Of a stretch of 24,678 nucleotides of DNA, positions 111 to 22,753 are shown one piece after another. Position numbers and translations under genes: made by a program. The notes beneath the pieces were generated by a model. It was not told the DNA's origin, did not search any database, and saw nothing but the letters and a program-made list of their open reading frames with translations. Every line of letters starts with the position of its first letter. Position 1 is the first letter of the stretch. Source of the stretch: a virus (lineage: Duplodnaviria; Heunggongvirae; Uroviricota; Caudoviricetes); the IMG/VR virus record IMGVR_UViG_2690316166_000006, positions 1 to 24,678 of that record; one strand, 5' to 3'.

Positions 111-3100
111 ATGGCAGTAAAGATTTCAGGTGTACTGAAAGACGGCACAGGAAAACCGGTACAGAACTGCACAATCCAGCTGAAAGCAAAACGTAACAGC
201 ACCACGGTGGTGGTGAACACGCTGGCCTCAGAAAATCCGGATGAAGCCGGGCGTTACAGCATGGACGTTGAGTACGGTCAGTACAGCGTTATTCTGTTGG
301 TGGAGGGATTCCCGCCGTCACATGCCGGGACCATCACCGTGTATGAAGATTCTCAACCCGGTACGCTGAATGATTTTCTCGGTGCCATGACGGAGGATGA
401 TGCCCGTCCGGAGGCACTGCGACGTTTTGAACTGATGGTGGAAGAGGTGGCGCGTAACGCGTCCGCGGTGGCACAGAACACAGCAGCCGCGAAGAAGTCA
501 GCCAGCGATGCCAGCACATCAGCCCGTGAGGCGGCAACCCATGCGACTGATGCTGCAGGCTCAGCACGCGCAGCCAGCACGTCAGCCGGACAGGCCGCGT
601 CGTCGGCTCAGTCAGCGTCTTCCAGCGCAGGAACGGCATCAGCAAAGGCCACTGAAGCATCAAAAAGTGCTGCCGCTGCAGAGTCCTCAAAAAGCGCGGC
701 GGCCACCAGTGCCGGTGCCGCGAAAACGTCTGAAACGAATGCTGCAGCGTCACAACAATCAGCAGCCACTTCTGCATCCACCGCGACCACGAAAGCGTCA
801 GAAGCTGCCACCTCAGCCCGGGATGCGTCGGCTTCAAAAGAGGCGGCAAAATCATCAGAAACGAGCGCAGCCTCGAGCGCCAGTAGTGCAGCTTCCTCGG
901 CAACGGCGGCAGGCAATTCCGCGAACGCGGCAAAAACGTCCGAGACGAACGCTAAGTCTTCTGAAACGGCAGCGGAACAGAGTGCCTCCGCAGCAGCAGA
1001 CTCAAAAACAGCGGCTGCATCATCTGCCAGCGCCGCGTCAACAAGTGCCGGGCAGGCCTCAGCCAGTGCCACCGCTGCCGGAAAGTCGGCAGAAAGTGCC
1101 GCATCGTCTGCTTCAACAGCCACAACGAAGGCTGGCGAAGCCACTGAACAGGCCAGCGCAGCAGCGAGTTCTGCTTCCGCAGCGAAGACATCCGAAACGA
1201 ACGCGAAAGCGTCGGAAACCAGCGCAGAATCCTCAAAAACGGCTGCCGCATCGTCCGCCAGTTCGGCGGCGTCATCGGCATCATCTGCGTCTGCTTCAAA
1301 AGATGAGGCGACCAGACAAGCGTCAGCAGCGAAGAGCAGCGCTACGACGGCATCCACGAAGGCGACAGAGGCAGCTGGCAGTGCGACGGCGGCAGCTCAG
1401 AGCAAAAGTACGGCGGAATCCGCGGCAACGCGCGCCGAGACAGCAGCTAAACGGGCAGAGGATATTGCATCCGCCGTGGCGCTTGAGGATGCAAGTACGA
1501 CGAAAAAGGGGATAGTACAGCTCAGCAGTGCGACCAACAGTACGTCTGAAACGCTGGCGGCAACGCCAAAGGCAGTAAAATCAGCCTATGACAATGCAGA
1601 GAAACGTCTGCAGAAAGACCAGAACGGCGCTGATATACCCGATAAGGGACGCTTCCTGAACAACATTAACGCGGTCAGTAAAACAGACTTTGCTGATAAG
1701 CGTGGTATGCGTTATGTGCGGGTTAACGCTCCTGCAGGTGCAACATCTGGAAAATATTATCCTGTTGTTGTTATGCGTTCTGCTGGCTCAGTAAGCGAAC
1801 TGGCATCAAGGGTCATTATCACCACGGCAACGCGAACCGCAGGCGATCCTATGAATAACTGCGAGTTTAACGGATTTGTTATGCCTGGTGGCTGGACTGA
1901 CAGGGGGCGTTATGCTTATGGAATGTTCTGGCAATATCAAAACAATGAACGAGCCATCCACTCAATAATGATGAGTAATAAGGGCGATGATTTGCGCTCT
2001 GTGTTCTATGTTGATGGCGCTGCTTTCCCTGTTTTTGCGTTTATCGAAGATGGCCTGTCAATATCCGCACCTGGTGCTGATCTCGTTGTTAATGATACGA
2101 CCTATAAGTTTGGGGCAACAAATCCAGCGACTGAATGTATCGCGGCGGACGTTATCCTTGATTTTAAGAGTGGGCGTGGTTTTTATGAGTCTCATTCGTT
2201 AATCGTTAACGATAACTTGTCGTGCAAAAAACTTTTTGCCACAGACGAAATTGTAGCGCGTGGTGGTAATCAGATTCGAATGATAGGTGGGGAGTATGGT
2301 GCATTATGGCGTAATGATGGCGCTAAAACTTACCTGCTGCTTACCAATCAAGGTGATGTTTATGGTGGCTGGAATACATTAAGACCGTTTGCTATTGATA
2401 ACGCAACCGGCGAACTGGTTATTGGAACCAAACTGTCCGCAAGTCTGAACGGTAATGCATTAACAGCAACAAAGCTGCAAACGCCAAGACTGGTTTCTGG
2501 TGTTGAGTTTGATGGTTCCAGAGATATTACTTTAACCGCTGCGCATGTTGCTGCTTTTGCCAGAAGAGCAACGGATACGTATGCCGATGCGGATGGGGGC
2601 GTTCCCTGGAATGCCGAATCAGGCGCTTACAATGTCACCCGCTCTGGCTACAGCTATATTCTGGTTAACTTCTATACCGGAGTCGGAAGTTGCCGGACCT
2701 TGCAGATGAAGGCGCATTACAGAAATGGTGGTCTGTTCTACCGTTCTTCAAGAGACGGTTATGGTTTTGAGGAAGATTGGGCAGAAGTTTATACCTCGAA
2801 AAATCTTCCACCAGAAAGCTACCCAGTCGGCGCACCAATCCCGTGGCCATCAGATACCGTTCCGTCTGGTTATGCCCTGATGCAGGGGCAGACTTTTGAC
2901 AAATCTGCATACCCGAAACTTGCAGCGGCTTATCCGTCAGGCGTTATTCCTGATATGCGTGGCTGGACGATTAAGGGCAAGCCCGCCAGTGGTCGTGCCG
3001 TATTGTCTCAGGAACAGGACGGCATTAAATCGCACACCCACAGCGCCAGCGCATCCAGTACGGATTTGGGTACGAAAACCACATCGTCGTTTGATTACGG

Positions 3101-4404: not shown

Positions 4405-4980
4405 ATGGATTTTAGAATGACTGAACAACCACGGACCATAAAAATTTATAATTTGCTGGCCGGAACTAATGAATTTATTGGTGAAGGTGATGCATACATT
4501 CCACCTCATACAGGTCTACCTGCAAACAGTACCGATATTGCACCGCCAGATATTCCGGCAGGCTTCGTGGCTGTTTTCAACGGTGATGATGCATCGTGGC
4601 ATCTCGTTGAAGATCATCGTGGTAAAACGGTTTATGACGTGGCATCAGGGGACGCGTTATTTATTTCTGAACTCGGTCCGTTACCGGAAAATGTTACTTG
4701 GTTGTCGCCGGAAGGGGAATATCAGAAGTGGAACGGTACAGCTTGGGTGAAAGATGCAGAAGCAGAAAAACTATTCCGGATCCGGGAGGCGGAAGAAACA
4801 AAAAACAGCCTGATGCAGGTAGCCAGTGAGCATATTGCGCCGCTTCAGGATGCTGCAGATCTGGAAATCGCAACGGAGGAAGAAACCTCGTTGCTGGAAG
4901 CCTGGAAAAAGTATCGGGTGTTGCTGAACCGTGTTGATACATCACTATCTCCAGATATCGAGTGGCCAAGTCAACCATAA
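4405..4980 (+). CDS. tfa: Tail fibre assembly protein (lambda Tfa family)
   Basis: ORF 4399..4980. The sequence [57 protein letters not shown] and the C-terminal [24 protein letters not shown] match lambda Tfa from memory. The ATG at 4405 is preferred, with GAGGTG upstream. Confidence 0.9.
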
Positions 4981-7792: not shown

Positions 7793-9694
7793 ATGAGCAA
7801 AGTAAAAATCGGTGAATTAATAAACTCACTTGTTAGCGATGTTGAGTCAATAGATAACTCTGACCGTCCTCAAGGGGAAAAAACAAAAAAAATAAAAGCT
7901 GTTGCATTAAAATTTAAAAATGCATTATTTAATGACAAGCGAAAGTTTAGGGGGAAAGGATTAGAAAAAAGAATTACAGCCAACACATTCAATGCCTATA
8001 TGAGCAGGGCCAGAAAACGGTTTGATGATAAACTTCATCATAGCTTTGAAAAAAATATACATCGCCTATCTGAAAAGTATCCTTTATATAATGAGGAGCT
8101 ATTATCATGGCTTTCTCTACCTGCTGCCGATATTCGCCAGAGAATGTCAGCTTTACAGGCAAAATTAAAATTAATTCTCCCTTTATCAGAAGATTTATCT
8201 AATATCAGAATTGGTGATAACAAAAGTCATAATAAGTTATTAAAATTATCAAATAAATATAAAGAGTGGCAATTCGCCATTTCTGATTTAACTAGCGATA
8301 ACTGGAAAGATAAGCGCGATTATTTATATAAATTACTACAGCAAGGATCTGCCTTACTTGAGGAGTTGAATCAGCTAAAAGTTAACCATGAGATTCTCTA
8401 TCATCTTCAACTAAGCCCTGCCGAACGCGCATCTATCCAGCAACGATGGGCAGACGTTCTGCACAATAAGAAACGTAACGTGGTGGTCATTGATTACCCT
8501 AAATATATGCAAGCTATTTACGATATTATAAATAGCCCTGCTACATTAAATAATCTAAACACTCGTTCAGGTATGGCTCCTTTGGCATTTGCACTTGCTG
8601 CATTGTCAGGAAGACGAATGATTGAGATTATGTATCAAGGTACATTTACTGTTTCTGGTAAGTATACCGTTGATTTTTTAGGCCAAGCAAAAAAAAGAAC
8701 TTCTGATGATATAACCAGAAAAATATATACATTATGCGAAGCAAAAACATTTGTTTATTTAATAAATGTACTTCGCTCATGCCCAGCAGCATCTGATTTT
8801 GATGATGTCGTTAAAGGTTATGGAGATAACGACACACGCTCTGAAAACGGACGGATTAATGCCATATTAGCAAAGGCTTTTAACCCGTGGGTTAAATCAT
8901 TTTTCAAAGATGACCGCCGTGTTTATAAAGATAGTCGTGCTATTTATGCCCGTATTGCGTATGAAATGTTTTTCCGCGTAGATCCTCGTTGGAAAAACGT
9001 AGATGAGGATGTTTTCTTTATGGAAATTTTAGGCCATGACGATGAAAACACTCAATTACACTATAAGCAATTCAAGCTGGCCAACTTCTCAAAGACATGG
9101 AGGCCAAATACTGGAAACGAAAATACCAGGCTGGAAGCATTGCAGCAGCTTGATGACGAAATGCCAGGATTCGCCAGAGGAGATGCCGGAGTTCGTCTGC
9201 ATAACACAGTTAAGCAGCTGGTAGAGCAGGACCCCTCTATAAAAATCACGAACAGCACTCTAAGAGCATTCAAATTTAGCCCTACAATGATTAGTCGATA
9301 CCTGGAATTTGCTGCTGATGCTCTGGGGCAATTTGTTGGCGAAAATGGACAATGGCAGCTGAAAATAGATTCTCCAGAAATCGTTATGCCTGACGAAGAA
9401 GAGCTGGAAGCAATACCTGAACAGACGGATGAATTATCAGAGGATGACGATCTGGATGACGACGAAATTGAGATAGAGGAAGAGGAAGAGGAAGAGGAAG
9501 AGAGCGTAGAAGAACAGCAACCGCCCGCGCCTTCTTCACCTGTATCTAAGCCGGTATTTAAGCCTGTGAGAAATATTGGTGATGGCTCATACGTTGTTGA
9601 ATTTCATTATAATGGCCAGAATTATGCTTGGTCCGGCAGTGCAAACAGCCCTATATCAGCAATGCAGTTAGCATGGCTGACATATTTCGGATAA
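7793..9694 (+). CDS. telN: Protelomerase TelN (telomere resolvase, tyrosine-recombinase-like)
   Basis: 633 aa. The N-terminus MSKVKIGELIN..DRPQGEKTKKIKA..KNALFNDKRKFRGKGL.KRITANTFNAYMSRARKRFDDKLHHSF and internal NTRSGMAPLAFALAA.SGRRMIEIM, RINAILAKAFNPWVKSFF and YARIAYEMFFRVDPRWKNVDEDVFFMEILGHDDENTQLHYKQFKLANFS match N15 TelN from memory. AGGAGAGG precedes the ATG. Confidence 0.95.
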   Translation: MSKVKIGELINSLVSDVESIDNSDRPQGEKTKKIKAVALKFKNALFNDKRKFRGKGLEKRITANTFNAYMSRARKRFDDKLHHSFEKNIHRLSEKYPLYNEELLSWLSLPAADIRQRMSALQAKLKLILPLSEDLSNIRIGDNKSHNKLLKLSNKYKEWQFAISDLTSDNWKDKRDYLYKLLQQGSALLEELNQLKVNHEILYHLQLSPAERASIQQRWADVLHNKKRNVVVIDYPKYMQAIYDIINSPATLNNLNTRSGMAPLAFALAALSGRRMIEIMYQGTFTVSGKYTVDFLGQAKKRTSDDITRKIYTLCEAKTFVYLINVLRSCPAASDFDDVVKGYGDNDTRSENGRINAILAKAFNPWVKSFFKDDRRVYKDSRAIYARIAYEMFFRVDPRWKNVDEDVFFMEILGHDDENTQLHYKQFKLANFSKTWRPNTGNENTRLEALQQLDDEMPGFARGDAGVRLHNTVKQLVEQDPSIKITNSTLRAFKFSPTMISRYLEFAADALGQFVGENGQWQLKIDSPEIVMPDEEELEAIPEQTDELSEDDDLDDDEIEIEEEEEEEEESVEEQQPPAPSSPVSKPVFKPVRNIGDGSYVVEFHYNGQNYAWSGSANSPISAMQLAWLTYFG

Positions 9695-9705
9695 AGCATA
9701 CGGTA

Positions 9706-9738
9706 AAGGCACCGAATTATCGGTGCCTTGTTGTGTGG
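9706..9738. terminator. Hairpin after telN, probably a bidirectional terminator
   Basis: 9-bp stem aaggcaccg / cggtgcctt with loop aattat, followed by gttgtgtgg. The U-tract is poor. Confidence 0.45.
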
Positions 9739-9739
9739 T

Positions 9740-9904
9740 CTACCTCGCCTGCCCCTTTTCGTCCTCATCCAACTTTCTGATAGCCGTAGAATCAATACCC
9801 GCCGCCATACACACATCAGATGCAACAAACCACGGATCGCCGTTAATCATCACTACACGTACCTGATGCTCTTCCTGAAAGGAAAATACTGCTAACGCGC
9901 TCAT
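9740..9904 (-). pseudogene. Truncated Bro-N / phage-antirepressor N-terminal fragment (54 codons)
   Basis: Minus-strand translation MSALAVFSFQEEHQVRVVMINGDPWFVASDVCMAAGIDSTAIRKLDEDEKGQAR* carries the Bro-N signature (F.F....VRV..I.G.PWFVA.DVC.......A...LD.DEKG) and then stops. Full Ant/Bro proteins run several hundred residues. The ATG overlaps the upstream ORF stop (ATGA), with AAGGAGG upstream. It is absent from the ORF track because it is under 60 aa. Confidence 0.6.
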
Positions 9905-10134
9905 TCAGCCTCCTTACCGTGCAGCAATTGCGACGAGAGCGATGCTGAATATCCCTGTGCTTCGTGTGTTAACTCACACGCAATTTGAAGGAGTTTCCCT
10001 GCTTCTGAGAGATAAATCGACGCCTCACAGCTGGAGACTGTCCGATGGGCTGATGATACGAGCGCATAGACCTGAGCCAGACGTTCATCCAACGATTCCA
10101 GCAGGCCAACAGTGTTCATTTTTACCTGATTCAT
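9901..10134 (-). CDS. Small hypothetical protein (77 aa) translationally coupled to the Bro-N fragment; sits where icd lies in P1-type anti-immunity operons
   Basis: ORF 9901..10134 with ATG start and GAGGTG 6 nt upstream. The positional analogy is inference only. Confidence 0.45.
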   Translation of the reverse strand: MNQVKMNTVGLLESLDERLAQVYALVSSAHRTVSSCEASIYLSEAGKLLQIACELTHEAQGYSASLSSQLLHGKEAE

Positions 10135-10460
10135 GCAGCCACCTCGCGCACCGGAATACGGGCAGACAATACCAGGACAAACCGGCTGGCGAACTGGCGA
10201 CGAGCTTCCCGTTCAGATGACGCGATGGTGGAAAGATGATGGATGTGTGACTTTTTGTCTGTGCGAACGACTGCCGCAAATTTGAATTTGAACATGGTAT
10301 GCACTCTTGTTTGGTAAAACAGTGCTACCACCAGAGTTGAGAATCTCTATGGGGTGGTAGCCCAAGCGGGGTTCTCAACACCGGCCCAAACGACACCGGC
10401 CAGCCTTTCGGCTGCCCCACCTGAGCCACCATAATTCGGATATGCGCAGGCTCATACACA

Positions 10461-10484
10461 CAAAAAAACACGCTGGCGCGTGTT
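10461..10484 (-). terminator. Rho-independent terminator on the minus strand
   Basis: On the minus strand: stem acacgc / gcgtgt with loop gcca, then seven U (plus-strand A-run 10462-10468). Confidence 0.55.
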
Positions 10485-10594
10485 GTGCGTCGTTCGGATT
10501 TCGGGGTTGAGAGTCCCGGCTACGGGATTTACCGCAGCGAAGTAACTTTACCGTCAAAACGACGCACACGTCAATAATTTGCAAAGGCATTTTA
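10485..10594 (-). ncRNA. Candidate structured small RNA or leader upstream of the anti-immunity genes
   Basis: No credible ORF. A long-range inverted repeat gtgcgtcgtt (10485-10494) / aacgacgcac (10557-10566) encloses internal hairpins (cccggctacggg) and the region ends at the minus-strand terminator. Ends are not defined. Confidence 0.3.
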
Positions 10595-10614
10595 CCCCGT
10601 GACCAGTCACGGGG
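10595..10614. promoter_or_regulatory. 20-bp perfect palindrome ccccgtgaccagtcacgggg (GTGACYRGTCAC family, copy 1)
   Basis: Perfect inverted repeat, followed on the plus strand by acaggtgttttta. A TATAAA on the minus strand lies just upstream (plus 10623-10628), so the palindrome would sit at the start of the leftward transcript. Confidence 0.5.
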
Positions 10615-10675
10615 ACAGGTGTTTTTATAGTTTGCTTGAACGAGTGTTCAGAAGTTGATCGTTAATCAAAGGCCA

Positions 10676-10963
10676 TTACTGATTAAGAGATTGGAAATAC
10701 CTAACTAACTTACCGGCATCATCACATTTTTCTTTATCTTCTTCCTTAACATAGCCGCGACAAAAGGCTGAATAAAATTTTGCATTTTCAGAAGCAAAAG
10801 CAGCCGTCGAAAGGAGCAGTTCTTTGCATGATTCTTTTGATGCAGCATCGGGATTATTTTTACATGCAAGCTCTGCTGATGAGTCAATAACAGAAATGCT
10901 ATCTTCCTGGGCATAAACCGCAGCAGAAAAGGCAAAACATAAAACAAAAATAAAACTCTTCAC
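10676..10963 (-). CDS. Small secreted, Cys-containing protein (95 aa) of unknown function
   Basis: ORF 10676..10963. N-terminal signal peptide MKSFIFVLCFAFSAAVYA-QE. The mature part is hydrophilic with four Cys. Confidence 0.55.
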   Translation of the reverse strand: MKSFIFVLCFAFSAAVYAQEDSISVIDSSAELACKNNPDAASKESCKELLLSTAAFASENAKFYSAFCRGYVKEEDKEKCDDAGKLVRYFQSLNQ

Positions 10964-10990
10964 TTTATCTCCTGTAACAGTTATCGCAAC

Positions 10991-11386
10991 TCAATCAACT
11001 TTTTTAGCATCAGCCATACGCTTCAACCAGTAATCAACAATCGGTTGCTCATCCACAGAATGTTTACCAGGTATAACTAGCCAGCTGTCTGCCGAAAGGC
11101 TACCGTATCTATGCGGGAAAAGGCATTTCTTTAGCTCCTGCCATGTGCTAGGAAAACCGTCTGCCAAAGTGCCAATTAACAGAAAAGGGACAAAAATCAG
11201 GGCTACAAACCATCGGGCAAGAAAGTGCTCAACAATAACCTCTTCACCGTTATAGTAATACGCATACGTATCCCATATACGAATTTTCCTTACCCTAAAA
11301 ATGGCCTTATGCTGAGAACGACTTAGCTTGATGCGAATGTATCCCTTATCCAAGAGGGATTGGTGTTTGTATGATTGAACAGCCAT
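10991..11386 (-). CDS. Small single-pass membrane protein (132 aa) of unknown function
   Basis: ORF 10991..11398 trimmed to the ATG at 11386, which has a GGGG run a few nt upstream. Hydrophobic helix FLARWFVALIFVPFLLIGTLA. Starts 2 nt after the upstream gene stop. Confidence 0.5.
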   Translation of the reverse strand: MAVQSYKHQSLLDKGYIRIKLSRSQHKAIFRVRKIRIWDTYAYYYNGEEVIVEHFLARWFVALIFVPFLLIGTLADGFPSTWQELKKCLFPHRYGSLSADSWLVIPGKHSVDEQPIVDYWLKRMADAKKVD

Positions 11387-11903: not shown

Positions 11904-14900
11904 TTACCCATAGAAAGCGCCCTGCTCTTCGTAGCTGCATGAGCTATTCCCGGTAATGTATTCTCGTAACCGCCGCAATTCATTGCTGGACAAGTGATCC
12001 ATGAACTCTGTGAGATACAGAGATGCAAACGTCATAGCTATGCTGGCTGATGACCATGATGACATAGTGGCCAGCTCCTCACCGGAAAGCGCACTCATCG
12101 CCCAGGACTCAGGAACAGCCACCGGCAATACGGCCAAAGCCTCAGAAATTACTGAATGAGGGGCGTTTTGAACCTGCTCGTTTGTGGATCGCGTTTTATC
12201 ATCCATATATATATTGAGATCCAAATCGCGATCCATTTCGATGGCTGTCTTCTCGGCTTTACGCGTTTTTAGGGTTAGGCCATCTTTCTGACGCTGAACA
12301 AGAATATCCAGCATAAATGCCGCTGATTCAGGCTCAACAAAACGCAAGGTTGGACGCTTATCGCCGTCTCTGCCGCGACGTTTACCTGTTTTAAGGCCAA
12401 GAGAGTCGCAAATGTTTTTAAACAACGCTTCCGGCACTTTAGGCTTCCCTTTTGGCGTCATAAAACCACCAATGTGCAGAACGTTATTCAACAGGTCACG
12501 GCGTTCGGCTGTCATGAGGTTATCTCGAGCGAATTTGAGACGCTCCTGAGTCGCCTCGCCGGTCATAGTCTCAGGGTTGATACCGCAGTCGATAAAGTAC
12601 TGCCGGAGAGTTGCTGATTTAAGCGCATAGAAACCGCGCGCCCCGACTTCAACAGTAGGAGTAGCTTTTACCTTGTAGTCGATTATTCCAGGGAATTTAG
12701 TTTTAAAGACATCATCAGCCTGCTCGCGAGTCATCGCGGTCACTACAAAATATTGCCACTGTCCCGCCTGACGGTATGCGTAGGTAAAATTGATGGCTGC
12801 TTCTTCCCGGTCGTAACGACGAGCTGTTACCTCATCTAAAAGCATTGTTTCATAGCGGCGAACTTTGTCTCGAGCACCATCGAAATAGAATTTCAGCGTG
12901 CCTTCTTCAACCGGTAGTTTCAGTTCGTTCTCAATATCCCAGCGGACAAGTTTTGCTTGTTCTTCAAGCGTCAGCGCGCGTTTTTTTAGCAGTTCTTCAC
13001 GCTCTGATTCTTGTGGAGTTTCTGTATTGAGATGCAGATCCAGTGTCTGTTCCCACACAATATCCCGCGCTTCTTTACGCAGATCTTTACCGATATCATT
13101 CGCAGCATAATCGGTGGCCAGCGGCGATACCTTATAACCGTCGCTGTGCATGATGCAGATCATGTTGCTGGCGTAGTCGTTACGCGCAGACGCTTCAATT
13201 GCGGCTGCTTTAATTTTCATCCTGGTAAAGTCGGTATTGGCCACCCCCATTGATATACGGTCGCCATCGAAAACGACATCCGTCAGTTCACCGTTCATGC
13301 CTGCGGTAGCAAGCAATGCCTGGACGAATGCTCGTTCTATTTTTTGCGGGTCAGTTTCACGTTTTGCGCGAGCTTTATCAAAGCCGATAATAAATTCTTT
13401 TGCTGTACGGTCGCGGCGTAGCATTTGCACTGCGTCGCTGGGTACAACTTCACCACAGAACATGCCGAAATGACGGTCAAAATGTTTTTGCTCAATCGAC
13501 ACACCGGATGAAATAGACGGGCTATAAATCAGGCCGTCGTATTTTTTGACCATCTTTTTCGGTTGATTGGTAAATGCTTCAACTTCTGGCTCTGGTTTGT
13601 TTTTCTGGTTTACACACAGAAATTTCTTACCAGGAAAATGCATTCTCAGGGTGGCGGTCACATCTTCTGCAAAGGTGGAGCTGTCGGTGGCCAACATGAT
13701 TTTTTCGCCATTCGATACAGCTTTCACCACCTCGGTCATAATGCGATCTTTTTCTGTATAAAAAACCCGGATTGGCTCACCTGTTTCGCGGTTGCGAACA
13801 TCAACAGGTAATTCAATTACGTGGATCTGCAGCCATGCCGGTAAACCTAGTTCTTCACGGCGTTTCATAGCCAGTTCAGCCAGGTCAACCAGCAGATCGT
13901 TCGCATCAGCATCCACCATTATTGGGTGTTGTTCCGTTCTGGCCAGCGCGTCAATTAACGTATTGAATACAGCCACCGGGTTTTCCATAGCCCGACCGGA
14001 AATAACGGCACGTAGCCCTTGCGTGGCCTCGTCAAAGCCAAAATAGTCGTGCTGGCGCATCAATGGTTGCCAGCAGTTTTTAACAATCGAGTTTATGCAG
14101 ATGGTCAGTTTACTGGCGTATGGAGCCATTTCCTGATAGCCAGGGTCCTGATAGTGCAGGATATCGGCTTTTACACCTTTTCCTTCTGTCATCATTTCCC
14201 ACAGGCCACCAATAAGGGAAACACGGTGAGCAACAGAGATACCACGTTCTGAGCTATGCATTAAAGGTCGTAACAATCCAGTAGATTTGCCGGAACCCAT
14301 ACCAGCACGAACGATGACTATCCCCTGTAGTGATTGCACATACTTCAGGACGTCATCGGTCATTACCGAAGTTTCAAAACGCTTATAGGTGATATGTTGA
14401 GGACGTTTATTGGGATCAGTTATTCGTTCGCTGAATGAGCGCGGAGCCTGGGCAATACGGCACTTTTTATTCAGGCGACGGGCAATGTGGTCTTTTACCG
14501 TAGCGCGATAGATATTTTCCAGCCCAATTTCACGCAGGACGATGCAGAACATGTTAAATAAGTCTGACGGACTGTTAGGAACCGGACAGGTTAGCATGCC
14601 AATATCCACTGCTCTCAGCAGCTCTTTGGCAAAAGTACGACGGTTATCCCGCTTAATTGTCTTCAGGCGGTTGAGCGTCAGAGATAGCAAATCAGTGCCA
14701 GTTTTCAGGCGGTTTGCAGTTGCAAACAGTTGACGTGCTGTTTCACGAAGTCCACGTAGTTTGTGCAGGTCGTTGAAGTCACTGCACTCCATTTGCGGAT
14801 CGTCTTCAAAAGTTGGATAGACGCAGCGGACATCGTTGAATTTCGATAAGATTTCATAGCCAGTCCGCAGGCCGGTATTCCCTTTTCCTTCTGTAGCTGA

Positions 14901-15899
14901 TTTCCGGTCATTATCCAGTGCGCAGGTGATTTTTGCCGCCGGGTACATGTTTACCAGTTGTTCCACAACATGAACCATGTTGTTAGCGGATACAGCGACA
15001 ACCACAGCGTCAAAGCGTTTATCTTTTTTCGTGGCAAGCCAGATGGATGCACCAGTAGCAAAACCTTCTGTAACAGCGATGTTTTGCGCCCCTTTCAGCT
15101 CACCGATAACAAAGCAGGCACCGACGAAATCGCCGCTGGTTACGGCGCTGGTCTGGTATTTTCCACCTTGTTTGTCGATTCGCTGCCAACCAACAATACG
15201 ACCATCGTAACGACCGTCCAGGTGAGCCAGAGGGATAGCCATATACGTGGTTGGCCCCCTGCTCCATTTTGCGCTGTCGTGACTGGTCACGCGACGCACA
15301 TCACACGAATTAAAAACGTCACGAATACCTTTTTTAATCGCATATGGCCATGAGCCGTCTTCTGCAGGAGCATGTTCCCAAGCACTGTGGAATGCCAGCC
15401 ATCCCAGCAAACGTTCATGGTCCATTTGGTTGTTTTTCAGGTCATTAATTCGTTTTTGTTCTTCACGGCGACGACGTGCTTCGGCCTGACGTTCTATTCT
15501 TGCCCGTTCTTCTTCCGGTTGTGCGACCACGGTCGCATTATTCCGTTGTTGCTCACGGCGATATTCAGAAAACAGGAAGGAGAAACCGCTCCATGAGCCA
15601 GCATCGCTGCCTTTATGGACGAAGTTAATGAACGGGTAATCAATCCCTTTGCTGTGTTCCAGCCGGGAGTAAATTTCTACGCGTCCTTTGAGGCTCTTTT
15701 CGAGAGCTTCTGGGGATGTTTTATTGTATGAAGAGTAACGCTCAACACCCCCGCGAGGGTTGAGTTGGATGTTGTCGGAACAGGCAGACCAGTTGATACC
15801 AGCCATCTGTGCCAGCTCGGTTAGTTCATCCCGTGCTGCTTCAATTAGCGAGAACGGATCGCTGCCAAAGCGATCCGCATAGAAATCGTTTAATGTCAT
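11904..15899 (-). CDS. repA: Replication protein RepA: large primase-helicase (N15 RepA / P4 alpha-like)
   Basis: 1331-aa ORF. Toprim-like primase motifs (VTEGFATGASI, AVSANN, ALDNDRK) and Walker A GMGSGKST. Size and position next to cB match N15 RepA. Confidence 0.88.
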   Translation of the reverse strand: MTLNDFYADRFGSDPFSLIEAARDELTELAQMAGINWSACSDNIQLNPRGGVERYSSYNKTSPEALEKSLKGRVEIYSRLEHSKGIDYPFINFVHKGSDAGSWSGFSFLFSEYRREQQRNNATVVAQPEEERARIERQAEARRRREEQKRINDLKNNQMDHERLLGWLAFHSAWEHAPAEDGSWPYAIKKGIRDVFNSCDVRRVTSHDSAKWSRGPTTYMAIPLAHLDGRYDGRIVGWQRIDKQGGKYQTSAVTSGDFVGACFVIGELKGAQNIAVTEGFATGASIWLATKKDKRFDAVVVAVSANNMVHVVEQLVNMYPAAKITCALDNDRKSATEGKGNTGLRTGYEILSKFNDVRCVYPTFEDDPQMECSDFNDLHKLRGLRETARQLFATANRLKTGTDLLSLTLNRLKTIKRDNRRTFAKELLRAVDIGMLTCPVPNSPSDLFNMFCIVLREIGLENIYRATVKDHIARRLNKKCRIAQAPRSFSERITDPNKRPQHITYKRFETSVMTDDVLKYVQSLQGIVIVRAGMGSGKSTGLLRPLMHSSERGISVAHRVSLIGGLWEMMTEGKGVKADILHYQDPGYQEMAPYASKLTICINSIVKNCWQPLMRQHDYFGFDEATQGLRAVISGRAMENPVAVFNTLIDALARTEQHPIMVDADANDLLVDLAELAMKRREELGLPAWLQIHVIELPVDVRNRETGEPIRVFYTEKDRIMTEVVKAVSNGEKIMLATDSSTFAEDVTATLRMHFPGKKFLCVNQKNKPEPEVEAFTNQPKKMVKKYDGLIYSPSISSGVSIEQKHFDRHFGMFCGEVVPSDAVQMLRRDRTAKEFIIGFDKARAKRETDPQKIERAFVQALLATAGMNGELTDVVFDGDRISMGVANTDFTRMKIKAAAIEASARNDYASNMICIMHSDGYKVSPLATDYAANDIGKDLRKEARDIVWEQTLDLHLNTETPQESEREELLKKRALTLEEQAKLVRWDIENELKLPVEEGTLKFYFDGARDKVRRYETMLLDEVTARRYDREEAAINFTYAYRQAGQWQYFVVTAMTREQADDVFKTKFPGIIDYKVKATPTVEVGARGFYALKSATLRQYFIDCGINPETMTGEATQERLKFARDNLMTAERRDLLNNVLHIGGFMTPKGKPKVPEALFKNICDSLGLKTGKRRGRDGDKRPTLRFVEPESAAFMLDILVQRQKDGLTLKTRKAEKTAIEMDRDLDLNIYMDDKTRSTNEQVQNAPHSVISEALAVLPVAVPESWAMSALSGEELATMSSWSSASIAMTFASLYLTEFMDHLSSNELRRLREYITGNSSCSYEEQGAFYG
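15278..15291. repeat. 14-bp palindrome cgtgactggtcacg inside repA (GTGACYRGTCAC family, copy 2)
   Basis: Perfect inverted repeat sharing the 12-bp core with the sites at 10601 and 20994. Confidence 0.4.
15522..15537. promoter_or_regulatory. sopC-like centromere candidate TGCGACC-AC-GGTCGCA inside repA
   Basis: 16-bp palindrome with the same architecture as the F sopC core TGGGACC-AC-GGTCCCA. One of three copies in the window. Confidence 0.5.
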
Positions 15900-16144: not shown

Positions 16145-16741
16145 TCATCTACCCTCAACCATGAATGATTTGATCGTTCCGACTATTTGGTGAACAAATT
16201 CAAGATCGCTTTTCCTGAAGATAGCGCGTTGTGAATTTGTTCCGTCCAGATAGTAATTTTCATCATCAAAACGGGCCAGGCGCTGGATGGTGATATTTCC
16301 TGCAGTATCACGAACCAGAACATCCTCGCCGGGGACCAGTTCCAGCGCAGAATCGACCAGGAGAAAATCGCCAGGCTGATAGTTTCCCTGCGCCAGATTG
16401 CTGATAGTTAACGCATAAACAGTATTGCGCTGGCTGATGAATGGCAGGAATCGCTCAGTATTTGGAACCTGTCCTGGCTTCCACTCTTCATCAGGTCCAC
16501 TTTCAGTTGTGCCAATAACAGGAATGCGATCAGGGTCATATTCTGTCCCATACAGCACCCAATGCACTGGCTTGCGTAAGCATTTAGCCAGGGCAATACC
16601 TATCTCCAGTGACGGCATTACGTCGCCACGTTCTAAGTTTTGGACGCCTGCAATAGAGATATCGACAGCCTCAGCAACTTCTCGCAACGTCAGCTTCATC
16701 TCTAAACGGCGTGCTTTCAGTCGTTCGCCTCGTGTTTTCAT
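16145..16741 (-). CDS. cB: Prophage repressor CB (CI-like: N-terminal HTH plus C-terminal LexA/S24-like domain)
   Basis: 198 aa. N-terminal HTH (LTLREVAEAVDISIAGVQNLERG) and a C-terminal domain of S24-peptidase-like length. Divergent from a cro-like gene across an operator-bearing intergenic region. Confidence 0.85.
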   Translation of the reverse strand: MKTRGERLKARRLEMKLTLREVAEAVDISIAGVQNLERGDVMPSLEIGIALAKCLRKPVHWVLYGTEYDPDRIPVIGTTESGPDEEWKPGQVPNTERFLPFISQRNTVYALTISNLAQGNYQPGDFLLVDSALELVPGEDVLVRDTAGNITIQRLARFDDENYYLDGTNSQRAIFRKSDLEFVHQIVGTIKSFMVEGR

Positions 16742-16763: not shown

Positions 16764-16805
16764 TTATAGCTGGCTATAAAATTTATTTATTATAGCTGGC
16801 TTTAA
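16764..16805. promoter_or_regulatory. Immunity operators: palindrome TTATAGC-TG-GCTATAA (16764-16779) and a second copy TTATAGCTGGCTTTAA (16790-16805)
   Basis: Two related 16-bp sites 26 bp apart between cB and cro. A TATAAT at 16821-16826 lies 6 bp upstream of the cro ATG. Confidence 0.6.
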
Positions 16806-16832
16806 ATGCGATTTATTGCTTATAATAACCGC

Positions 16833-17054
16833 ATGAAACCAGAAGAACTTATTCGCCACTTTGGCAGTGTAGAAAAAGCAGCGGCTGGGGTAGGTGTAAC
16901 ACCCGGTGCTGTTTACCAATGGTTAACCGCTGGAGAGATTCCTTCATTGCGGCAAAGTGATATTGAAGTTCGTACTGCTTACAAGCTGAAGAGTGACTTT
17001 ACAACTCGGCGGGTAAAGCAGTCGATTAAGGAGAGCCGTAAGCGTGGAGCTTGA
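16833..17054 (+). CDS. cro: Cro-like small DNA-binding protein
   Basis: ORF 16806..17054. The ATG at 16833 is preferred (MKPEELIRHFGSVEKAAAGVGVTPGAVYQWL: helix-turn-helix). The TATAAT just upstream suggests a leaderless transcript. Confidence 0.75.
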   Translation: MKPEELIRHFGSVEKAAAGVGVTPGAVYQWLTAGEIPSLRQSDIEVRTAYKLKSDFTTRRVKQSIKESRKRGA

Positions 17055-17761: not shown

Positions 17762-18007
17762 ATGTTCAGGAAACCGTCGAAGCCAGAATTAAGGTATTCG
17801 GGGGTAAGAAATGAATATGTTATCTGGTGTCCAACTTGTGGTTACAGAACACGACCAGATAGTAATAAGCAGTCTGTAATTGCCGATTGGTATTTATCAA
17901 ATCAGCCAGGTAATAAGCATATAGAAAATCTTTGGATTAAGCGTTACTTGGAAATCAGAGAGGGTGCGACCGTGGTCGCACAAGAAAATGAAAATAACGC
18001 CATTTAA
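17762..18007 (+). CDS. Small hypothetical protein with a CPTCG motif (81 aa)
   Basis: ORF 17687..18007 trimmed to the first ATG after the upstream stop. Confidence 0.35.
   Translation: MFRKPSKPELRYSGVRNEYVIWCPTCGYRTRPDSNKQSVIADWYLSNQPGNKHIENLWIKRYLEIREGATVVAQENENNAI
17964..17981. promoter_or_regulatory. sopC-like centromere candidate GTGCGACC-GT-GGTCGCAC
   Basis: 18-bp palindrome with the same arms as the sites at 15522 and 22732, central dinucleotide in opposite orientation. Confidence 0.5.
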
Positions 18008-20670: not shown

Positions 20671-20997
20671 ATGGCGCTGACACCGGCAGAACGGCAAAGA
20701 AGACGCAGGGAACGGTTGAAGAAGGAAGGAACATCAAGACGTGACTGGATTCTGGAACCTGACGAGTTACGTATGTTGGGGGAAATTTGTGTATTGCGTA
20801 GACCAGGGCGAGTTCCATATTCAGAGAACGAAGTCATCGGACTGCTGATCAGGAAAAACTATAAGGAGTTGCAGAAACAGCTATCTACTACTTGTCCGCG
20901 ATGTGGTCAAAAAATGCCTGTTTCAGAATGCATTTTTGATGGTGAAGGCTCATGCCACCTTACAACCACGAGGCTGAAACTTGCGCTCAAAGTGTGA
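20671..20997 (+). CDS. Hypothetical basic protein with a CPRCG zinc-ribbon-like motif (108 aa)
   Basis: ORF with AGGAGGA upstream. Arg-rich N-terminus (ERQRRRRERLKKEG). Confidence 0.5.
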   Translation: MALTPAERQRRRRERLKKEGTSRRDWILEPDELRMLGEICVLRRPGRVPYSENEVIGLLIRKNYKELQKQLSTTCPRCGQKMPVSECIFDGEGSCHLTTTRLKLALKV

Positions 20998-21005
20998 CTG
21001 GTCAC
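20994..21005. repeat. 12-bp palindrome GTGACTGGTCAC (GTGACYRGTCAC family, copy 3)
   Basis: Overlaps the stop of the 20671..20997 ORF and precedes the RBS of the small ORF at 21016. Confidence 0.4.
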
Positions 21006-21198: not shown

Positions 21199-21217
21199 CC
21201 TGTAATTTTATACAGTA
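21199..21217. promoter_or_regulatory. LexA (SOS) box CTGT-N8-ACAG
   Basis: cCTGTaattttatACAGta fits the E. coli SOS box pattern. It overlaps a promoter-like TTGAGT-17-TACAGT and lies 25 bp upstream of the ATG at 21240. No other CTGT-N8-ACAG site was seen on manual scanning. Confidence 0.6.
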
Positions 21218-21239
21218 TCAAATAACCTTTTTTAATTAA

Positions 21240-21458
21240 ATGGTATTAGATTCAATGACTGAAGCACCTGTATCAACTCTTGAAGAACTCGGATCAAACC
21301 TAAAAGACATCGACGCCGTTTTGGATCTGGTTAGCGTTGCTCTGGCTTCTCCAGAAGCCAGCTTGCATCTTGGCGAGATTTCACGACTTGTTAGTATGTC
21401 GCGGGAGATTGCTCAGAATTGCCAACAAGTTATTGCTGTTGAGTGTTTGCATCATTGA
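21240..21458 (+). CDS. Small acidic protein (72 aa); candidate SOS-inducible antirepressor
   Basis: ORF directly downstream of the LexA box and the operator-like site. No RBS seen. The function is inferred from context only. Confidence 0.4.
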   Translation: MVLDSMTEAPVSTLEELGSNLKDIDAVLDLVSVALASPEASLHLGEISRLVSMSREIAQNCQQVIAVECLHH

Positions 21459-22731: not shown

Positions 22732-22753
22732 CTGTGCGACCACGGTCGCACAG
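22732..22753. promoter_or_regulatory. sopC-like centromere candidate CTGTGCGACC-AC-GGTCGCACAG
   Basis: 22-bp palindrome, the longest of the three copies, just after the stop of the preceding ORF. Confidence 0.5.

Follow-up and report, generated by a model that had tools for sequence, protein, structure and literature searches.

An N15-like phage-plasmid carries an RNA-controlled immA operon that appears functional in design and has lost only antB

Does a truncated Bro-N gene at the end of an anti-immunity locus mean that the whole locus has decayed? The question is raised by a minus-strand region of the window, by which we mean the entire 24,678-nt stretch of viral DNA analysed here. The window is an N15-like linear phage-plasmid, and plasmids of this type are common among clinical isolates of Escherichia, Klebsiella, and Enterobacter. 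The region at issue is its immA (secondary immunity/anti-immunity) operon, which a first-pass annotation had read as a decayed module with an inactive antirepressor. We found that this is an RNA-controlled system of an already known kind and that the locus is an ordinary copy rather than a decayed one. Judging from the sequence, we put at about 85% the probability that the operon is functional in design and that its last gene, antB, is the only part to have been lost.

The operon spans 10574-9740 on the minus strand, lies between telN (7793-9694, plus strand) and repA (11904-15899, minus strand), and is transcribed towards telN. Its elements follow one another in the order promoter, 76-nt isrK/seqA-type leader with terminator, 87-nt C4-family RNA (CA), icd, antA, and truncated antB, with the three ORFs linked via ATGA overlaps. 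The features of the locus, its surroundings, and a related gene elsewhere in the window are as follows.

10595-10629, minus strand: upstream conserved block, TATAAA (10629-10624) plus a 20-bp palindrome (10614-10595), conserved upstream of immA in relatives
10545-10574, minus strand: predicted proximal sigma-70 promoter, TTGACG-N18-TAAAGT, predicted +1 near 10538
10463-10538, minus strand: isrK/P4-seqA-type leader RNA, 76 nt (Rfam RF01394, 54.9 bits against a gathering score of 50, model positions 1-77), with helix covariation
10350-10436, minus strand: C4-family antisense RNA, 87 nt (Rfam RF01695, 71.8 bits against a gathering score of 45, full model 1-87)
10304-10361, minus strand: downstream target region, a hairpin (10361-10353 with 10332-10324) carrying a2 in its loop, and b2 by the icd Shine-Dalgarno sequence
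10131-10295, minus strand: icd, 54 aa, Icd-like host cell-division inhibitor (NCBIfam NF033153, 66.3 bits against a cut-off of 25)
9901-10134, minus strand: antA, 77 aa, intact; small antirepressor by homology, homolog of N15 gp31, with its own Shine-Dalgarno sequence GAGGTGG
9740-9904, minus strand: antB remnant, 54 codons, of which 49 are Bro-N codons and 5 are novel, plus a stop
9708-9727, no strand assigned: probable terminator shared by the convergent telN and immA genes, a hairpin (GGCACCG-ATAATT-CGGTGCC) lying between them
21200-21458, plus strand: LexA box CTGTaattttatACAG (21200-21215) and AntC-like gene, a 72-aa ORF (21240-21458) paralogous to antA

The N15 immA locus (cA RNA, icd, antA, antB) was reportedly described by Ravin, Svarchevsky and Deho in 1999, and the resemblance to it and to P1 immI that had been noted from the sequence was borne out. 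The region is homologous to N15 genes 30-32 plus the annotated N15 terminator, has the same telN-repA position and an identical gene order (leader, terminator, C4-like RNA, icd, an ORF of ~76 aa, Bro-N gene), and is 81.6% identical to N15 at the DNA level across 539 bp of leader and icd. Directly upstream, the window has a gene for a 95-aa secreted protein where N15 has gene 33. At the other end, a terminator-like match from the scan (9714-9701) overlaps the hairpin between telN and immA. Loci of relatives were gathered from plasmid matches and from an exact-pattern scan of viral contigs; a scan of genome contigs with Icd gave only two loci. In the published account of phiKO2 CB and Cro (PMC4997575), immA is not mentioned.

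The leader of about 325 nt that had been placed after the terminator is instead occupied by the C4 RNA and by icd. The C4 RNA, homologous to N15 CA, P1 c4, and P4 CI, is closed by a long stem, folds at -49.2 kcal/mol (z = -4.5), and has a minimum free energy fold identical to the consensus fold. Its two recognition segments are exposed, b' (10396-10385) within the hairpin 2 loop and a' (10378-10372) within a single-stranded joint, and segments complementary to them lie both upstream (a1, b1) and downstream (a2, b2), as in other members of the family. When mapped onto the window, the old N15 'cA' feature, annotated as the secondary immunity repressor, covers 10131-10433, that is, icd and the C4 element, and stops short of 10461.

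Upstream of the C4 RNA, the leader begins at the predicted +1 of the promoter and has the three hairpins of the isrK family, the last of which is the terminator. It consists of hairpin 1, hairpin 2 with a1 (10513-10506) in its loop, the single-stranded segment b1 (10498-10487), and an intrinsic terminator, and its fold has an energy of -26.7 kcal/mol (z = -3.0). A match to the c4-a1b1 family, RF03163, was sub-threshold (25.1 bits). The terminator scan placed the stem at 10484-10467 and a T7 run at 10468-10462, in agreement with the terminator noted earlier near 10461 and at a position homologous to the stem_loop annotated in N15. The earlier expectation of a small regulatory RNA from the minus strand was therefore right in that the locus is built for small-RNA control, but the RNA ending at 10461 is the isrK/seqA-type leader, a carrier of target sites. 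In both the window and 12 relatives, the C4 and isrK matches exceed the Rfam gathering scores. Published work treats isrK as a structural homolog of seqA and C4 as a homolog of the CI RNA, common to P1, P7, and N15 (PMC3632133, PMC4825925).

The search for leader segments complementary to the regulator, proposed along with RNA folding by the first-pass annotation, yielded a network of pairings between a'/b' and both target sets that covaries among 26 relatives. Within the intramolecular helices, 97.8% of cells were paired, and nine pairs showed compensatory changes. For a'-a2, all 182 cells (100%) pair and four of the seven pairs are compensatory; for a'-a1, 94% of cells pair, while slid controls for the a' pairings gave 20-62%. 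Duplexes between b' and its targets were likewise stronger for cognate than for non-cognate combinations (means of -14.1 versus -9.6 kcal/mol for b'-b1, and of -10.5 versus -7.1 kcal/mol for b'-b2), and the relatives show 15 different a/b combinations. In the window itself, b'-b1 forms 12 bp at -18.9 kcal/mol and b'-b2 forms 6 bp at -8.4 kcal/mol, the weakest of the four pairings. The downstream targets are a2 at 10343-10337 and b2 at 10314-10309, the latter abutting the icd Shine-Dalgarno sequence AAGAG (10308-10304). Since ~45 nt separate a2 from the icd AUG downstream of it and b'-b2 has only 6 bp, a direct ribosome block would be weaker here than in some relatives. When the read-through leader was folded as a whole, a1b1 paired with a'b' in cis (-110.4 kcal/mol, z = -6.1). 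The a' segment is identical to that of N15 (UUGAGAA), but the b' loop and its targets differ, reading GUCGUUUGGG in the window and CUUCUUGU in N15, so the specificity of secondary immunity is predicted to differ at least in part.

Both small genes predicted to be under this RNA control are conserved. We found icd intact in 45 of 45 loci and antA in 44 of 44 readable loci, with pN/pS values of 0.08 and 0.10, respectively. The icd stop overlaps the antA start (ATGA), and PGAP annotates a 165-nt icd in relatives. The 77-aa ORF, which had been taken for a small ORF coupled to the antirepressor gene, is indeed present at 10134-9901 and translationally coupled; its product, however, is by homology a small antirepressor of the AntA type. 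It is 62% identical to N15 gp31, matches the PY54 'antirepressor AntA' (E = 4e-9), scores 66.8 bits against phrog_10889 ('anti-repressor'), and shares phrog_6301 with the LexA-box ORF at 21240 (124 bits each). Comparison of antA with this AntC-like ORF gave an hhalign probability of 88%, whereas direct BLASTP was not significant (E = 0.2); the relationship is established by the homology to PY54 AntA, hhalign, and PHROGs. A large protein search with AntA returned near-identical hypothetical proteins only. By homology, then, the 77-aa ORF belongs to the AntA/AntC family of small antirepressors of telomere phages, and gp31 is probably AntA, given its gene order and its homology to PY54 AntA. The Bro-N ORF, to which the antirepressor role had been assigned, was the wrong gene. 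In P840, a close relative of PY54, the antA gene abolished lysogenisation (PMC10612081).

The loss is confined to antB, whose frame is truncated to 54 codons as had been noted. A profile search, one of the checks put forward with that observation, identified the fragment as Bro-N (PF02498 in Pfam; 28.8 bits, cut-off 25.6), covering positions 1-41 of the 96 in the profile; a full-length AntB relative spans positions 1-96, and the complete domain is absent here. Compared with YDC107_1, and unlike N15, the window has a clean 738-bp deletion with its junction within GGGG at 9755-9752. This deletion removed the rest of antB plus ~110 nt of conserved 3' non-coding sequence and kept the hairpin at 9708-9727, which is conserved in YDC107_1. 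Only AntB residues ~1-50 remain encoded, out of a full-length protein made up of Bro-N and a C-terminal region of ~150 aa, and the product now ends in DEDEKGQAR before the stop. An Rfam E-value search of the N15 non-coding stretch after antB gave noise only. Of 17 complete N15-like plasmids from E. coli, 13 carry the deletion; an identical allele occurs in the deposited phage genome PhiR46_1 and in 11 of the fetched loci, and the junction is also present in IMG/VR contigs. Other lineages have a nonsense codon in antB, other deletions, or an ORF of 393-400 aa in its place.

This distribution bears on three other accounts of the truncation. That it is a sequencing or assembly artefact, with a full-length Bro-N protein to be recovered after frameshift correction, is next to impossible: tblastn detected no C-terminal AntB coding sequence anywhere in the window, and independent genomes share the junction. 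The proposal of a decayed, inactive locus regulated by the RNA ending near 10461 draws on the loss of more than half of the Bro-N profile and on the PHROGs label for Bro-N proteins, 'anti-repressor Ant', yet we consider it very unlikely. The module cannot be called decayed because icd, antA, and both RNAs are intact, as well as under purifying selection, and because the deletion allele is common in relatives, being the majority form in E. coli. Several lineages have lost antB independently and never icd or antA, a pattern that speaks for a switch independent of AntB; the antirepressor family member is the intact 77-aa ORF, and the N15 cA locus maps onto the C4 element. Published summaries of N15 also name AntA as the active product and assign no elucidated function to AntB (PMC4488713, PMC10612081), so the lack of a full-length AntB marks a variant and does not place the locus outside the family. 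Quite unlikely, too, is that the 54-aa remnant has been kept for a function, for instance that of a miniature Bro-N peptide or of a spacer whose translation protects the 3' end of the operon, which would make the deletion allele a derived variant rather than a loss. Its ORF is intact in 11 of 11 carriers with six distinct alleles and a pN/pS of 0.21, a value that comes from few substitutions and non-independent pairwise comparisons; the Shine-Dalgarno sequence and the ATGA coupling are retained, and the allele is common and occurs with four different RNA specificity types. Against this, less than half of the Bro-N profile positions are left, and the quite different routes by which other lineages lose antB fit dispensability better than a new function. 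It is conceivable, though unlikely, that loss of AntB is advantageous in E. coli and that recombination has for this reason carried the deletion allele into at least four backgrounds of RNA specificity.

Inactivation of the Bro-N gene had also been thought to shift induction control to the LexA-regulated ORF at 21240. No such shift is needed, since N15, which has a full-length antB, already uses antC, the gene that initiates its induction (PMC4488713). By analogy, SOS induction of the phage-plasmid analysed here would run separately from immA, via the paralogous LexA-controlled AntC-like gene.

Upstream of the leader, the elements that had been pointed out are present, although their roles need some revision. 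The TATAAA sequence lies where it had been noted, but the only sigma-70 match reported in a scan of 9600-11100 is TTGACG-N18-TAAAGT, a single match being within chance (shuffle mean 2.4). The proximal promoter is supported not by this count but by its predicted +1, which coincides with isrK model position 1 (10538), and by the conservation of both hexamers in relatives. The 20-bp palindrome CCCCGTGACTGGTCACGGGG is perfect. Its 12-mer core GTGACTGGTCAC has three copies in the window where 0.08 would be expected, namely upstream of immA, within repA, and upstream of the gene-47/antC block, and N15 likewise has three copies at the equivalent places. The palindrome is not the N15 SopB centromere, whose inverted repeat reads GTGCGACCnnGGTCGCAC (PMC7205306, Table 4) and is found elsewhere in the window, at 15521, 17964, and 22734. 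Nor is it the CB operator; the repeats presumed to be CB operators, between the presumed cB and cro genes, read TTATAGCTGGCTATAA. Together, the palindrome and TATAAA may form a distal, operator-controlled entry into the operon.

The long-range inverted repeats were confirmed as well, one matching at 11 of 11 nt (10558-10568 with 10484-10494) and the other over 17 nt at 82% (10502-10518 with 10367-10383). The first involves b0 (10568-10558), a b'-like segment in the promoter spacer that forms 11 of 11 bp with b1 and its 3' flank in the window. Among relatives, b0-b1 duplexes had a cognate mean of -17.3 kcal/mol and a non-cognate mean of -16.6 kcal/mol (permutation p = 0.044). Transcripts that enter upstream of the proximal promoter would carry b0, and b0-b1 pairing could then hide the leader from the CA RNA. 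We regard it as unlikely, however, that immA has such a second, protein-gated input that sidesteps RNA control with the conserved palindrome as its operator.

How, then, might the operon work? The steps below follow from its anatomy and from the literature on P1, P4, N15, and Gifsy-1, and the last, concerning AntB, partly from comparative data. In the lysogen, the proximal promoter would be active, and the majority of transcripts would end at the terminator as a short leader RNA. Read-through transcripts would contain the C4-like RNA, to be excised from its tRNA-like long stem; P1 c4 is a substrate of RNase P. The released CA RNA could act at two places. Pairing of a' and b' with a1 and b1 on nascent leaders would reinforce termination, which amounts to autoregulation, though a gain in termination is not evident thermodynamically because the terminator already forms in the fold of the free leader. 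Pairing with a2 and b2 ahead of the icd Shine-Dalgarno sequence would block translation of icd and, via translational coupling and polarity, of antA, so that the prophage stays immune. When CA is short or titrated, Icd would be made and block cell division, and AntA would be made and inactivate the CB repressor. Such a shortage could result from the infection of a naive cell, from a heteroimmune relative, or from an excess of the short leader acting as a decoy, like IsrK. AntB would be accessory, with a switch that still works in its absence.

A different regulatory logic is suggested by Gifsy-1, in which the counterpart of the short RNA is an activator and not a repressor (PMC4825925), a result that counts against the scheme above. 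If IsrK-type logic dominated here, the short leader RNA would be a trans-acting inducer of icd-antA translation, pairing with the read-through C4-like region or sponging CA and so opening the icd ribosome-binding site. The match to the isrK family and the covarying complementarity of a1/b1 to a'/b' are in line with this, and the cis fold of the full-length transcript parallels the inactive 'structure A' of isrK-orf45 (PMC4825925). Nevertheless, the genetics that define cA in N15 show the CA RNA to be a negative regulator of the antirepressor (PMC10732415), and we hold dominance of the inducer role to be possible but doubtful. The two schemes are not exclusive, as a decoy role for the short RNA fits CA-mediated repression.

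We consider CA-mediated repression the preferred scheme, and it can be set beside three known systems. The P1/P7 immI system (c4 antisense RNA, icd, ant1/ant2) was reportedly characterized by Citron and Schuster in 1990. In P1, c4 carries a' and b', the targets a1b1 and a2b2 lie upstream and downstream of it, and icd is coupled to the antirepressor gene. The window shares with immI the C4-family RNA, the two recognition segments, the duplicated target sets, the coupling of icd to an antirepressor gene, and specificity alleles with the kind of covariation seen between P1 and P7. Unlike P1 immI, it encodes a 77-aa AntA/AntC-type protein and a Bro-N remnant rather than the large Ant1/Ant2, an isrK-type intrinsic terminator separates a1b1 from the C4 RNA, and the icd Shine-Dalgarno sequence is preceded by a2 and b2 rather than clearly covered by them. 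On these grounds, the locus appears to work like immI, yet it is not a P1-type immI. The Gifsy-1 isrK-orf45-anrP system (Hershko-Shalev et al. 2016, PMC4825925) similarly has an isrK-family RNA whose terminator is leaky; transcripts that pass it continue into a C4-like element (STnc1160) and a short ORF to which an antirepressor-like gene is coupled, and the leader pairs in cis with the downstream element. It differs in that its short RNA has been shown to activate translation and in its output, AnrP and then AntQ, where the predicted outputs of the window are Icd and AntA and the Bro-N-type protein is truncated. In P4 (seqA - CI RNA - seqC), the regulator is likewise processed from the leader of the operon that it controls and pairs on both of its own flanks, but premature termination there controls the replication (alpha) operon, with no icd or antirepressor genes.

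These results do not alter the current understanding of such modules, and they show how the annotation of N15-like phage-plasmids can mislead. There, the name 'antirepressor' is attached to the dispensable Bro-N gene, while the actual effectors, Icd and AntA (77 aa), and the two RNAs mostly go unannotated or appear as hypothetical proteins or 'ash family protein'. Natural compensatory mutations support a three-site RNA recognition network (a1b1, a'b', a2b2), and its specificity combinations, at least 15 in number, should define secondary-immunity groups among N15-like plasmids.

DNA searches grouped the window with the N15-like linear phage-plasmids of the genus Ravinvirus: Escherichia phage PhiR46_1 matched at 94.8% identity across the whole query, YDC107_1 at 97.1% identity in a match split in two pieces, and N15 at 81.6% identity over 539 bp. 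The counterpart block sits between telN and repA in all three relatives and corresponds, in N15 numbering, to genes 30-32 and a "putative rho-indep. transcription terminator". The block is the N15 immA locus and, apart from a full-length antB, it shows every defining feature tested for an N15-type immA. On its minus strand, the TATAAA, 20-bp palindrome, intrinsic terminator and ATGA-joined ORFs described in the first-pass annotation are all present, among the following features:

7793-9694, plus strand: protelomerase ORF, 633 aa
9904-9740, minus strand: 54-codon Bro-N ORF (antB remnant), joined by ATGA to the next
10134-9901, minus strand: 77-aa ORF
10295-10131, minus strand: icd, 54 codons (NCBIfam NF033153, 66.3 bits against 25)
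10314-10309, minus strand: b2, adjoining the icd Shine-Dalgarno sequence
10343-10337, minus strand: a2, in the loop of a hairpin downstream of the C4 RNA
10378-10372, minus strand: a', exposed in the joint of the C4 RNA
10396-10385, minus strand: b', exposed in the hairpin 2 loop of the C4 RNA
10436-10350, minus strand: C4 antisense RNA, 87 nt (RF01695, 71.8 bits against a gathering score of 45)
10484-10467, minus strand: terminator stem, followed by seven T
10498-10487, minus strand: b1
10513-10506, minus strand: a1
10538-10463, minus strand: isrK-family RNA ending at the terminator (RF01394, 54.9 bits against 50)
10574-10545, minus strand: TTGACG-N18-TAAAGT, the sole sigma-70 match reported by the promoter scan
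10614-10595, minus strand: perfect 20-bp palindrome
10629-10624, minus strand: TATAAA
11904-15899, minus strand: RepA ORF, 1331 aa

The interval previously read as about 325 nt of leader instead holds the C4 antisense RNA and the icd gene, which PGAP labels "host cell division inhibitor Icd-like protein" in relatives and whose stop overlaps the start of the 77-aa ORF. A single sigma-70 match is no more than chance (shuffles average 2.4); the promoter is supported because its predicted +1 falls exactly where the isrK model begins and because relatives keep both hexamers. Folded by itself, the leader RNA forms three hairpins, the terminator last, with a1 in the loop of hairpin 2 and b1 single-stranded, and the C4 RNA takes its Rfam consensus fold, a 17-bp closing stem and two hairpins. 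In the full read-through leader, a1b1 was predicted to pair with a'b' in cis (-110.4 kcal/mol, z = -6.1). A repeat search confirmed the long-range inverted repeats claimed for this strand and independently recovered a'-a1, a'-a2 and the alternative hairpin. At the same place, the Rfam "a1, b1 targets of C4" model scored above threshold in two relatives and below it in the window.

The 11-nt promoter-spacer segment 10558-10568 pairs perfectly with 10484-10494, the 3' part of b1 plus the next 3 nt; it would be in the RNA only if transcription came in from upstream, and covariation support for this pairing is weak (permutation p = 0.044). PGAP calls of an 'ash family protein' CDS or pseudogene lie exactly over the C4 RNA gene in five relative loci (L007 788-958, L009 830-952, L010 783-905, L012 1404-1511 and L014 1381-1488), and in YDC107_1 a 71-aa 'hypothetical protein' is annotated across both RNAs, isrK and C4. 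In all these cases RNA genes have probably been annotated as proteins.

We then compared the pairing sites among relatives (plasmid and phage records and 45 IMG/VR contigs), aligning 26 distinct leaders. The seven a'-a2 pairs were standard in 100% of 182 cells, with 4 of the 7 changing on both sides, against 20-56% pairing in slid controls; a'-a1 was paired in 94% of cells, with four compensatory pairs. Because their columns aligned poorly, the b contacts were scored as duplex energies, and cognate duplexes averaged -14.1 (b'-b1) and -10.5 kcal/mol (b'-b2), compared with -9.6 and -7.1 kcal/mol for duplexes with a different b' allele. In the window, b'-b1 spans 12 bp (-18.9 kcal/mol) and b'-b2 only 6 bp (-8.4 kcal/mol). 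The intramolecular helices of both RNAs were paired in 97.8% of cells with 9 compensatory pairs, a score reached by no shuffle. The relatives carry 15 different a'/b' combinations; a' is common to the window and N15, and b' differs.

In the old N15 record U63086, a CDS is labelled "cA, secondary immunity repressor"; alignment offsets place it at window positions 10131-10433, spanning icd and the C4 element and ending short of the terminated leader. Because this CDS covers the C4 element, and not the terminated leader, we equate the N15 regulator CA with the C4 homolog. The small RNA ending near 10461, first proposed as the regulator, is instead the upstream target or partner of CA. This RNA network has the same architecture as P1/P7 c4, P4 seqA-CI-seqC and Gifsy-1 isrK-STnc1160; isrK and C4 have been described as structural homologs of seqA and CI, and the N15 system as similar (PMC3632133; PMC4825925).

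We identify the 77-aa ORF as the probable AntA because it is homologous to N15 gp31 (62% identity) and to the 87-aa PY54 protein annotated "antirepressor AntA" (E = 4e-9), because an AntA profile matches the AntC-like 72-aa ORF at 21240-21458 (hhalign, 88% probability), and because in PHROGs the two proteins share the families phrog_6301 (124 bits each) and phrog_10889, "anti-repressor". PY54 AntA also matches the 72-aa ORF (E = 5e-10); a LexA box, CTGTaattttatACAG, lies ahead of this ORF at 21200-21215, and N15 has an unannotated homolog of it at 39604-39807. Their common family suggests that the window holds two paralogous small antirepressor genes, the immA one RNA-controlled and the other behind a LexA box. 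Published overviews of N15 give AntA as the active product and assign AntB no elucidated function (PMC4488713, PMC10612081). Expression of antA from P840, a close PY54 relative, abolished lysogenisation (PMC10612081), and N15 induction is started by antC (PMC4488713, PMC10612081). The 54-aa icd was intact in 45 of 45 loci and antA (73-80 aa) in 44, all those where it was readable.

The 54-aa product does have the Bro-N homology assigned to it (28.8 bits against a cut-off of 25.6), over profile positions 1-41 of 96, compared with 1-96 in the full-length YDC107_1 protein (258 aa). Alignment with YDC107_1 and N15 revealed a clean 738-bp deletion in the window, ending in short G-runs (...GAAAAGGG joined to GCAGGCGAGG...), with the loss of AntB from codon 50 on and of some 110 nt of non-coding sequence that is conserved. 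A tblastn search with full-length AntB found N-terminal residues only, and no C-terminal coding sequence, in the window; therefore, a sequencing error or frameshift hiding a full-length Ant, as the first-pass annotation had allowed for, is excluded. The identical junction occurs in PhiR46_1 and in 11 fetched loci. Among complete E. coli genomes with the locus, 13 of 17 match in one uninterrupted piece, which indicates the deletion allele, and the other 4 have full-length antB. The allele is linked to four a'/b' specificity types, two of which also occur with full-length antB, a distribution suggesting that recombination has moved it around. Elsewhere, antB is lost through a nonsense codon (L047), a different deletion (L015), a 129-aa form (L026), absence of the gene (L035, L051) or replacement by an ORF of 393-400 aa (L048, L055). 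Among deletion carriers, icd and antA gave pN/pS values of 0.08 and 0.10, respectively, and the antB remnant one of 0.21; since these values come from small counts and from pairwise sums that are not independent, the 0.21 is no evidence for or against constraint on the remnant. AntB appears dispensable.

The replacement ORFs downstream of antA in the IMG/VR loci L048 and L055 (MLYAVRLRLYPN... and MLKRQAFKFQLRPN...) presumably resemble IS200/IS605-family TnpB proteins. Full-length relatives share a conserved GC-rich multi-hairpin stretch of about 130-170 nt located between the antB stop and the telN-proximal terminator (GGGTTGGCCAGCCC..GCCCCGC..GCGGGG..GTCCCTGCAGTCGGGAC..; about 1780-1965, minus strand, in YDC107_1, L001, and 1815-1987 in N15, L002), mostly removed by the window deletion. 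Rfam gave no match in this stretch; a 60-aa ORF annotated there in YDC107_1 does not keep its frame in N15.

The 12-bp palindrome core, GTGACTGGTCAC, has three exact copies in the window against 0.08 expected:

10599-10610: upstream of immA
15279-15290: inside repA, coding for VTSH
20994-21005: just upstream of the gene-47/antC block

N15 (L061) carries it at three equivalent places (4551-4562, 9238-9249 and 15270-15281), with 0.05-0.08 expected per genome. We rejected it as the SopB centromere inverted repeat, from which its sequence differs, and as the CB operator, since the repeats separating the presumed genes cB and cro read differently. N15-type SopB repeats, GTGCGACCnnGGTCGCAC, lie scattered in the right arm (15521-15538, 17964-17981 and 22734-22751), dispersed like N15 IR1-4. 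Repeats of the TTATAGCTGGCTATAA type, which we take to be putative CB operators, lie at 16764-16805 between the divergent presumed cB (16145-16741, minus strand) and cro (16806-17054, plus strand), both assigned from position and sizes, and part of this repeat recurs, as GTTGGCTATAAAA, directly ahead of the LexA box at 21200. Directly upstream of immA, a 95-aa ORF (10676-10963, minus strand) with an N-terminal signal-peptide-like segment is labelled 'Spackle exclusion protein' in PhiR46_1; its sole PHROG match is phrog_26765 (206 bits), a family of unknown function. N15 lacks a counterpart there, and the ORF may be a moron. A full-length Rfam IS009 match (4748-4946, plus strand; RF02111, 221.8 bits against 117) falls in the left part of the window.

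Starting from the observed anatomy, homologies and pairing-site covariation, we infer the rest of a working model. In the lysogen, the proximal promoter would be active and most transcripts would stop at the terminator as a 76-nt leader; read-through transcripts would yield the C4-like CA RNA, cut out of its tRNA-like stem. RNase P processes both P1 c4 and P4 CI. CA would pair with a1/b1 of nascent leaders and reinforce termination, an autoregulation in terms of which the N15 paper reportedly described its terminator Ta. By also pairing with a2/b2, which lie shortly before the ribosome-binding site of icd, CA would block icd translation and, via ATGA coupling and polarity, antA as well. When free CA drops, Icd and AntA would be made, and AntA would inactivate the prophage repressor CB. 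The short leader could double as a CA decoy, which would square the model with IsrK acting as an activator in Gifsy-1. The locus would work like P1 immI, but without a P1-type Ant. Of the first-pass interpretation, the system class and the truncation hold; its regulatory RNA, its choice of antirepressor and the supposed inactivity of the module do not, and icd had been missed. The kind of system is already known; new here are a different predicted b' specificity and an antB deletion allele that is common yet undescribed.
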